Positions 6,246-6,621 of a stretch of DNA of 9,584 nucleotides are shown piece by piece. The notes under the pieces are model-generated. The model was not told the DNA's origin and did no database searches. It saw nothing but the letters and a program-made list of their open reading frames with translations. This DNA comes from a virus (taxonomy: Duplodnaviria > Heunggongvirae > Uroviricota > Caudoviricetes), in the IMG/VR virus record IMGVR_UViG_2671180755_000015. One strand, 5' to 3'. A program made the translations under genes and the position numbers. Numbering within the stretch: position 1 is the first letter of the stretch; every line of letters begins with the position of its first letter.

Positions 6246-6341
6246 AGCTACCTCGATACTTTCGCTATCGTTGGTGGTCAGAGGCTGCGAAAGGACGGCA
6301 ATCCTTTTCAGCCTCGTTTGCATTGAGTGATAAACACTCAG

Positions 6342-6422
6342 CTGGATTCCAGTATAATCACTAAGTGGAATCCACTTCAAGCGTTTTGTTTTGGTCTTTT
6401 TCGTGTATACTGGATTCCAGTA
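6342..6422. promoter_or_regulatory. Divergent promoter region with three operator-like GGAWTCC sites
   Basis: CTGGATTCCAGTA at 6342-6354 and again at 6410-6422 (13-bp perfect direct repeat), and AGTGGAATCCACT at 6364-6376. Each contains the palindromic core GGA-W-TCC. -10-like hexamers overlap them: TATAAT at 6353-6358 and TATACT at 6406-6411 on the plus strand, and TTGAAG-18-TATACT on the minus strand. Confidence 0.55.
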
Positions 6423-6441
6423 ATCACAAAGGGAACCAGAA

Positions 6442-6621
6442 ATGGAAAGAGACCATATCAATAACAAATCACAGAAATTACAGGCTCGCGCCCCGCATGA
6501 AGTTGTTGAGGCTATGGAGCAAGTAAAAGAAACAGGCGAGAGCACTGCGCAATTTATCGTTACAGCCATGCGAGGCGAGATCAAACGCCGCCAGCGCCGT
6601 AAGGCCAAAGAATCAGAATAA
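6442..6621 (+). CDS. Small ribbon-helix-helix-like protein (59 aa), candidate transcriptional regulator
   Basis: Not in the ORF track (below 60 aa). ATG at 6442 preceded by AGGGAA. Translation: MERDHINNKSQKLQARAPHEVVEAMEQVKETGESTAQFIVTAMRGEIKRRQRRKAKESE. The pattern (short strand, helix, turn, helix, basic tail) resembles RHH regulators. Divergent from the replication operon. Confidence 0.5.
   Translation: MERDHINNKSQKLQARAPHEVVEAMEQVKETGESTAQFIVTAMRGEIKRRQRRKAKESE

Follow-up and report, generated by a model that had tools for sequence, protein, structure and literature searches.

The DNA analysed here (the window) is a 9,584-base stretch of the virus record IMGVR_UViG_2671180755_000015 (Caudoviricetes), and it is 100% identical to the chromosome of Escherichia coli 2013C-3342 over the 1.3 kb searched. 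It shows the leftward replication operon of a phage satellite, which starts with a gene encoding an Icd-like protein, and a divergently oriented small gene, rhh, which encodes a protein of 59 amino acids (aa). Three related pseudo-palindromic sites (O1 to O3) lie between the two genes, on their promoters (Table 1). The 59-aa protein is probably an autoregulated ribbon-helix-helix (RHH) repressor of the satellite replication operon, with many specificity types in its family.

The three sites were described in a first-pass annotation made from the letters of the window alone, and a coordinate check recovered all of them at their positions, together with the perfect direct repeat of 13 nucleotides (nt), CTGGATTCCAGTA, formed by O1 and O3. 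The three sites have in common the 9-nt palindromic core TGGAWTCCA. This core is found exactly in three copies in the window, all in the divergent region, and likewise in three in the 25.3-kb genomic locus L001, where they fall inside a stretch of 77 bp; 0.26 copies are expected there by chance and none of 100 dinucleotide-preserving shuffles reaches three. Taken with the adjacent TATA, O1 and O3 are mirror images and form a 15-nt inverted repeat. The overlap with -10 hexamers that had been claimed for all sites holds for O1 and O3, but O2 lies in the spacer of the leftward promoter (P_left) and touches the -35 instead. The divergent promoter pair likewise stands in that the sites lie on core elements, but the rightward promoter, which serves rhh (P_right), had to be revised to the TATACT given in Table 1. 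P_left shows nine of 12 consensus matches in a consensus scan, with a predicted start at about 6344. About 45 loci keep the -10 of P_right, as TATACT or TATAAT, with constant spacing to the ATG, and the Shine-Dalgarno sequence noted in the first pass, 7 nt before the rhh ATG, is present and has GGAG or GAGG at the equivalent position in the homologues. O1 also overlaps a plus-strand TATAAT (6353-6358). The match TAAACA-16-TATAAT, preferred by the consensus scan, was rejected as the main rhh promoter because its hexamer is not conserved in the other loci, and it is probably specific to this element. The location of O2 in a slightly long 18-nt spacer would also suit a MerR-like activation of the leftward promoter instead of its repression; there is only a slight chance of this, since the -10 and the start lie under O1, the QQLNARF type described below has a spacer of 17 nt, and RHH proteins are not known for spacer activation, which is a property of MerR-family helix-turn-helix (HTH) proteins with spacers of 19-20 nt.

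The module was compared in 44 loci from one-genome-per-species contigs, in the model island EcCICFT073 and in six further E. coli elements. These roughly 50 loci, from a dozen or so enterobacterial genera that include Escherichia, Xenorhabdus, Serratia, Pectobacterium, Dickeya, Proteus, Morganella and Yersinia, show a near-uniform layout upstream of rhh: a hairpin, (G/C)TG-N5-CAC and TATA.., then GTG-N5-CAC and GTCAA.., followed by a T-rich stretch, GTATACTG-N5-CAC, a Shine-Dalgarno sequence and the ATG. On the complementary strand these motifs form a near-consensus leftward promoter, with GTCAA as its -35 (TTGAC) and CAC-TATA as its -10 (TATAGT), and P_left of the other loci shows a -35 TTGAC(G/A), a 17-18-nt spacer and a -10 TATAGT or TATACT at the equivalent place. 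In this shared wiring the leftward promoter has O1 over its -10 and start and O2 within its spacer, and O3 is joined to the -10 of rhh. Most related loci have an O1-equivalent of their own type in the corresponding place, the offset of O2 from the conserved rhh -10 is fixed in nearly all of them, and the pattern of GTATACTG plus operator at O3 is conserved across genera. Two E. coli loci of the QTVAARV type (L047 and L051) show a variant use of the same parts, with three GTGTTGAACAC sites close together and the third operator directly after the leftward -35, not fused to the rhh -10.

The first-pass annotation had proposed checking conservation of the three sites in related elements; their positions are conserved, and changes in their sequence go along with changes in the strand of the protein that is predicted to read the DNA. 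The promoter elements and the outer TG/CA of the operators are constant and the inner operator bases vary, jointly at all three sites, so that mismatches per 9-mer are 1.1 among the operators of one locus and 3.4 between types. Across about 20 types, the operators change in concert with strand residues 12-17. A selection of nine types shows the following pairs of strand (residues 11-17) and operator: QK(L/I/V)Q(A/T)RA with TGGAnTCCA, Q(A/S)LK(A/S)RV with GTGTGGCCCAC (the type of EcCICFT073), (K/R)KLEARV with GTGTCAGCCAC, QQLNARF with GTGAATCGCAC, QMTTVRI with GTGTATTTCAC, QKMSARV with CTGGCACCCA, KRFDVRV with TGTCGGACA, TQIASRV with GTGCTAACCAC, and QTVAARV with GTGTTGAACAC; further types exist. 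The pair of KKLEARV and GTGTCAGCCAC is present both in E. coli O157 and in Xenorhabdus, that of QQLNARF and GTGAATCGCAC in E. coli, Pectobacterium and Proteus, and that of QALKARV and GTGTGGCCCAC in EcCICFT073 and Dryocola; QMTTVRI and GTGTATTTCAC likewise recur together in distant genera. In same-type pairs from distant genera, 151 of 166 operator positions are identical, versus about 60% in the remaining intergenic DNA. In the genomes of Xenorhabdus and Pectobacterium with co-resident elements (loci L005/L018/L040 and L006/L011/L012/L041 among them), none of 12 pairs is of the same type and 1.4 are expected (P about 0.21), a difference that is not significant and therefore carries no claim of selection for orthogonality.

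The same comparison bears on a different binder of the repeats, namely AlpA, the Icd-like protein or a host protein, with the small open reading frame (ORF) as a linked passenger. Two PHROGs (phrog_6196 and phrog_1743) label Icd-like proteins as "transcriptional repressor", AlpA is a proven activator in such islands (PMC6092414), and tight linkage could mimic co-variation. However, the Icd-like proteins of the window and EcCICFT073 are 95% identical and the AlpA proteins of L047 and EcCICFT073 are 97% identical over 38 aligned C-terminal residues, in both cases despite different operators. The leftward genes of Xenorhabdus begin with one that has no relation to Icd, and the heptad and operator are paired there as in E. 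coli. A host factor, moreover, would not need a dozen site sequences. A different binder is therefore very improbable; as judged by sequence comparison, the small protein alone among the neighbours checked tracks the sites, and its binding to repeated pseudo-palindromic operators through the strand residues has computational support.

The 59-aa protein is most likely an RHH transcription factor and presumably dimeric. The AlphaFold2 monomer model (predicted local distance difference test score, pLDDT, 86.7) has its best matches among RHH proteins, and its two-helix core, formed by helix A, a turn and helix B, can be superposed on solved RHH proteins. The proposed layout shows a strand at about residues 11-17 (QKLQARA), helix A at 19-28, helix B at 35-58 and a basic tail, RRQRRKAK. 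Hydrophobic residues at positions 13, 15 and 17 alternate with polar ones at 12, 14 and 16, as they would in a strand; positions 12 and 14 vary, and position 16 is an invariant arginine (R16). This pattern would be expected of an RHH reading strand with its arginine on the constant outer bases. The only direct Pfam match is PSK_trans_fac, of the RHH clan, with a sub-cut-off E-value of 0.024. A distant family member, P0202 (profile E-value 6.7e-4), reaches 20.5 bits on Pfam RHH_1, equal to the gathering score, which, like the model match, is in line with the RHH-like pattern noted in the first pass. Single-sequence and profile searches for links to solved structures gave only noise, and Foldseek with the 59-residue model against the Protein Data Bank gave nothing useful. 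A weak hhalign match to Arc of phage P22 is in register through the R-x-P-x-E-V motif and puts K12, Q14 and R16 onto the base-contacting residues Q9, N11 and R13 of Arc; this alignment is a lead, not a test. Some family members, such as that of L048 (813-1118) and P0113, P0117, P0126 and P0140, have 100-130 aa; an insertion that looks rich in helix separates their RHH core from the basic tail and may be an added oligomerisation or partner-binding module.

The ORF predicted in the first pass exists with its ATG start. Its description as untracked holds only for the track used there, since RefSeq has the protein as WP_000439004.1, "YlcI/YnfO family protein". Residues 9-50 match NF041551 with 72.3 bits (cut-off 30; E-value 2.4e-20), and the protein belongs to phrog_949, a PHROG of unknown function. 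The family is small, with 95 matches at E-values of 0.001 or less in a profile search of 1.84 billion cluster representatives, and a tblastn search of 50,697 phage records gave no match. Of 5,426 complete E. coli genomes, 1,448 contain DNA that resembles the module. Coding conservation, on which the first-pass reading had been made to depend, is clear: the gene is kept across Enterobacterales with a mean ratio of non-synonymous to synonymous differences (pN/pS) of 0.31. The 42 distinct coding sequences show a pS of 0.69, which is near saturation, and a pN of 0.21, and the window gene and its Tenebrionibacter homologue show 0.70 and 0.04, respectively. Literature searches on YlcI/YnfO/DUF3950, on PICI with ribbon-helix-helix, and on AlpA/PICI/repressor found no functional study of the 59-aa gene.

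Downstream of rhh there is a stem-loop, also present in EcCICFT073, and many other loci show a clear intrinsic terminator at this position. The next gene, orf75, has homologues with 63% and 45% identity in some E. coli elements, which have in common the C-terminal motif KFAL..F....P...KA..NRPPG; searches of Pfam, NCBIfam and PHROGs gave no family match for it. These features bear on a type II toxin-antitoxin system, in which the 59-aa protein would be the RHH antitoxin, orf75 would encode the toxin, and the repeats would serve autoregulation. Membership in this class was rejected and is given hardly any weight: in most loci a terminator follows rhh directly and orf75 is absent or unrelated, orf75 has no family match, the 59-aa protein ends in a short basic tail with no C-terminal toxin-binding extension, and two of the three operators lie on the other promoter.

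On the other side of the operators, the leftward transcript starts with a structured 5' leader, which contains a G+C-rich hairpin (6281-6315), a second hairpin holding the Shine-Dalgarno sequence, and a near-invariant single-stranded UCUAACCA. Compensatory changes are seen at 10 of the 14 consensus pairs across 17 diverse loci. The leader has no Rfam match, and an Rfam search of the window with E-values up to 1 found no C4/IsrK-type immunity RNA and no other credible RNA. The leader might act as an attenuator or a stabiliser, or be targeted by a regulator, either RNA or protein.

The sites, their placement on conserved promoters, the RHH-like model, the purifying selection and the co-variation together support the 59-aa protein as repressor of the replication operon. 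For this protein we infer DNA binding, dimerisation, repression and a derepression route, and the same holds for the "immunity or derepression switch" label of the first-pass annotation. In the proposed mechanism, the N-terminal strand would recognise pseudo-palindromes of 9-11 bp with the form (G/C)TG-N5-CA(C/G), with K12, Q14 and the invariant R16 toward the DNA and L13, A15 and A17 toward the core. Protein bound to O1 and O2 would block RNA polymerase at the strong leftward promoter, and protein on O3 would limit its own synthesis from a weak promoter. Since the operators lie on the core elements of P_left and P_right, bound protein would shut off the operon encoding the Icd-like protein, DUF4222, the primase-helicase and the single-stranded DNA-binding protein (SSB), and the island would stay quiescent until a helper-dependent signal overrides the repressor. 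Three routes could lift the repression. Transcription of int-alpA-bro activated by AlpA may run on through bro, cross rhh in antisense orientation and enter the operon, and a terminator scan showed no convincing minus-strand terminator between bro and the operon. The adjacent Bro-N protein, which matches anti-repressor families in PHROGs, may inactivate the repressor. The third route would be a helper-phage protein.

Four points weigh against this mechanism. The rhh promoter has no recognisable -35, the DNA upstream of its -10 being T-rich, and is absent from the output of the consensus scan. Residues 8-16 are predicted as short helical turns, not as a strand, in the monomer model (pLDDT 64-83), as expected if the strand forms only in the dimer. 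Part of the co-variation is simple linkage, because the distance between gene and operators is below 100 bp. Finally, the protein may be a modulator and not a master switch. The published model for Gram-negative phage-inducible chromosomal islands (PICIs) contains only an activator, AlpA, and no repressor, and regards uncontrolled replication as harmful; over-expression of AlpA alone induces replication of EcCICFT073, and deletion of alpA abolishes its transfer (PMC6092414). Any RHH repression must therefore be bypassable. These data would suit a protein that binds the sites as a CopG- or Cro-like modulator after induction, AlpA alone deciding between quiescence and induction, and the autoregulatory O3 and the weak promoter of rhh also fit homeostatic control. 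This alternative is nevertheless unlikely: P_left is near-consensus in most loci (TTGAC(G/A), 17-18 nt, TATAGT) and has two operators within its core, a promoter that strong, if unrepressed, would drive the replication reported as harmful, and rhh occupies the position of Stl in the Staphylococcus aureus pathogenicity islands (SaPIs), divergent from the replication operon.

Table 1. Features of the 9,584-base window (positions are those of the window; nt, nucleotides; MFE, minimum free energy).
Feature	Position	Strand	Description
O1	6342-6354		CTGGATTCCAGTA; overlaps 4 nt of the leftward -10 and its predicted start
O2	6364-6376		AGTGGAATCCACT, perfect 13-nt palindrome; in the P_left spacer, 2-nt overlap with the -35
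O3	6410-6422		CTGGATTCCAGTA; joined to the final 2 nt of the rhh -10, covers the predicted start
P_left (Icd-like/replication operon)	6351-6380	-	TTGAAG (6380-6375), 18-nt spacer, TATACT (6356-6351)
P_right (rhh), -10	6406-6411	+	TATACT; predicted start about 6418
Second promoter-like match	6331-6358	+	TAAACA-16-TATAAT, 10/12; its -10 overlaps the P_left -10
Shine-Dalgarno of rhh	6430-6434	+	AGGGA
rhh	6442-6621	+	59 aa, ATG start
Structured 5' leader of leftward transcript	6246-6345	-	MFE -33.3 kcal/mol, z -3.4
Stem-loop directly after rhh	6631-6657	+	weak T tail
orf75	6679-6906	+	75 aa; present in only some E. coli elements
Terminator after orf75	7106-7133	+	good
Icd-like protein	6042-6245	-	67 aa, ATG at 6245; NF033153, E-value 2.5e-19; first gene of leftward operon
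Hypothetical gene	5729-6049	-	second in leftward operon
DUF4222	5423-5722	-	third in leftward operon
D5/DUF5906 primase-helicase	3609-5441	-	leftward operon
Hypothetical gene, then SSB, then hypothetical gene	after primase-helicase	-	
ClpP-like protease/major capsid fusion	129-2018	-	gene calls and family searches
Bro-N protein	7299-7877	-	gene calls and family searches
AlpA-like HTH	7937-8161	-	gene calls and family searches
Integrase	8154-9392	-	gene calls and family searches

The window is a helper-embedded Gram-negative PICI. Such elements are about 10 kb, are integrated inside a late gene of the helper prophage (A, B, C or E), and contain int, an alpA-like gene, a Bro zone, a replication zone (D5/DUF5906 primase and SSB) and a late gene, with the ori placed after pri (PMC10111431). 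The window shows this gene order, and in 2013C-3342 the element is inserted between two halves of the terminase large-subunit gene of a lambdoid prophage, which splits the helper gene in two. The attachment core CCCTCCATCCAA, a 12-bp direct repeat, is found at both junctions (L001 5209-5220 and window 9550-9561), the left one about 780 bp beyond the window. EcCICFT073 is a close cousin with an identical arrangement. In the window only rhh and orf75 have the plus orientation.

Three further regions of the element were observed. The helper prophage encodes nearby (L001 412-2391) a homologue of the satellite ClpP-like prohead protease/major capsid fusion, and the satellite copy may be used for making or modifying capsids. 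A sequence of about 70 nt is present in two copies (window 36-104 and 2572-2644), which are 97% and 86% identical to intergenic DNA of the helper prophage (L001 17162-17230) between the lysis genes and a DUF1441/small-terminase-like gene; several Stx phages also have matches to the first copy, at positions without annotation. The two copies probably represent packaging sites of cos type that the satellite has taken over, and they would indirectly support a dependence of its induction, replication and packaging on a helper phage. Directly downstream of the primase-helicase gene, an AT-rich region (3423-3536) contains repeated GTTCACC-like units and a long imperfect dyad symmetry and is probably the replication origin; miRNA-like Rfam matches in this AT-rich repeat region were rejected as spurious.

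Autoregulated RHH repressors whose operators lie on promoters are a familiar kind of device, and the gene already carries an annotation, one that names no function. What is new is the family as a candidate repressor of the replication operons of Gram-negative PICIs, and its existence, on the sequence evidence, as a series of co-varying protein-operator types. The paper on helper-embedded PICIs treats the named genes of the element as unidirectional (PMC10111431), and the module, also present in EcCICFT073, adds a small gene that is conserved, faces the other way and has operators on the replication-operon promoter. Should the gene work as suggested, a layer of repression would be added to the regulatory model of these satellites, and the natural protein-operator variants would be useful for studies of RHH specificity and as orthogonal repressor parts. 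A further-reaching, tentative suggestion, to which somewhat less than even weight is given, is that Gram-negative PICIs, EcCICFT073 included, have their missing master repressor in the RHH protein, whose family would have diversified into at least a dozen orthogonal heteroimmunity pairs. If so, the replication operon would be held off until AlpA-driven events override the repressor, several satellites could coexist in one cell without cross-regulation, and the natural series would be a readable recognition code of the RHH strand, with positions 12 and 14 set against the inner operator bases.

Among known systems, the RHH repressors Arc and Mnt of P22 immI act on the overlapping divergent promoters Pant and Pmnt. 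They resemble the 59-aa protein as small RHH proteins (about 50-80 aa) with operators between or over the -35 and -10 of back-to-back promoters and with autoregulation. They differ in showing no significant sequence similarity to it, in that P22 has two proteins and the satellite has one protein with three operators, in that P22 controls an antirepressor and not a replication operon, and in the many specificity types of the satellite family. CopG (RepA) of pMV158 is also an RHH repressor of about 45-60 aa, with a pseudo-palindromic site over the core elements of a replication-operon promoter, and the Pfam model that P0202 reaches, RHH_1, is that of the CopG family; copG and repB are transcribed together from the repressed promoter, whereas rhh is divergent and has its own operator-bearing promoter. 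The E. coli K-12 proteins YlcI (prophage DLP12) and YnfO (Qin) belong to the same N-terminal domain family, NF041551, but show low similarity to the satellite subfamily. The ylcI gene lies beside cos and nohD in the late region of a lambdoid prophage, and no comparable triple operator or replication operon was seen in the DNA upstream of it. In P4, the CI RNA acts on seqA and seqC in the leader of the left operon. P4 immunity resembles the present module in being exerted near the start of the leftward replication operon (Icd-like gene, then primase) of a satellite, but its repressor is an RNA, and no C4/IsrK-type RNA is found in the window. The regulators Stl and Rpr of the SaPIs are also divergent from the excision and replication operon of a phage-inducible island (PMC6092414). 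However, the Stl proteins are larger HTH repressors of unrelated fold, without homology to the 59-aa protein, and Stl repression is lifted by a helper-phage protein, whereas Gram-negative PICIs are reportedly switched on by the activator AlpA.
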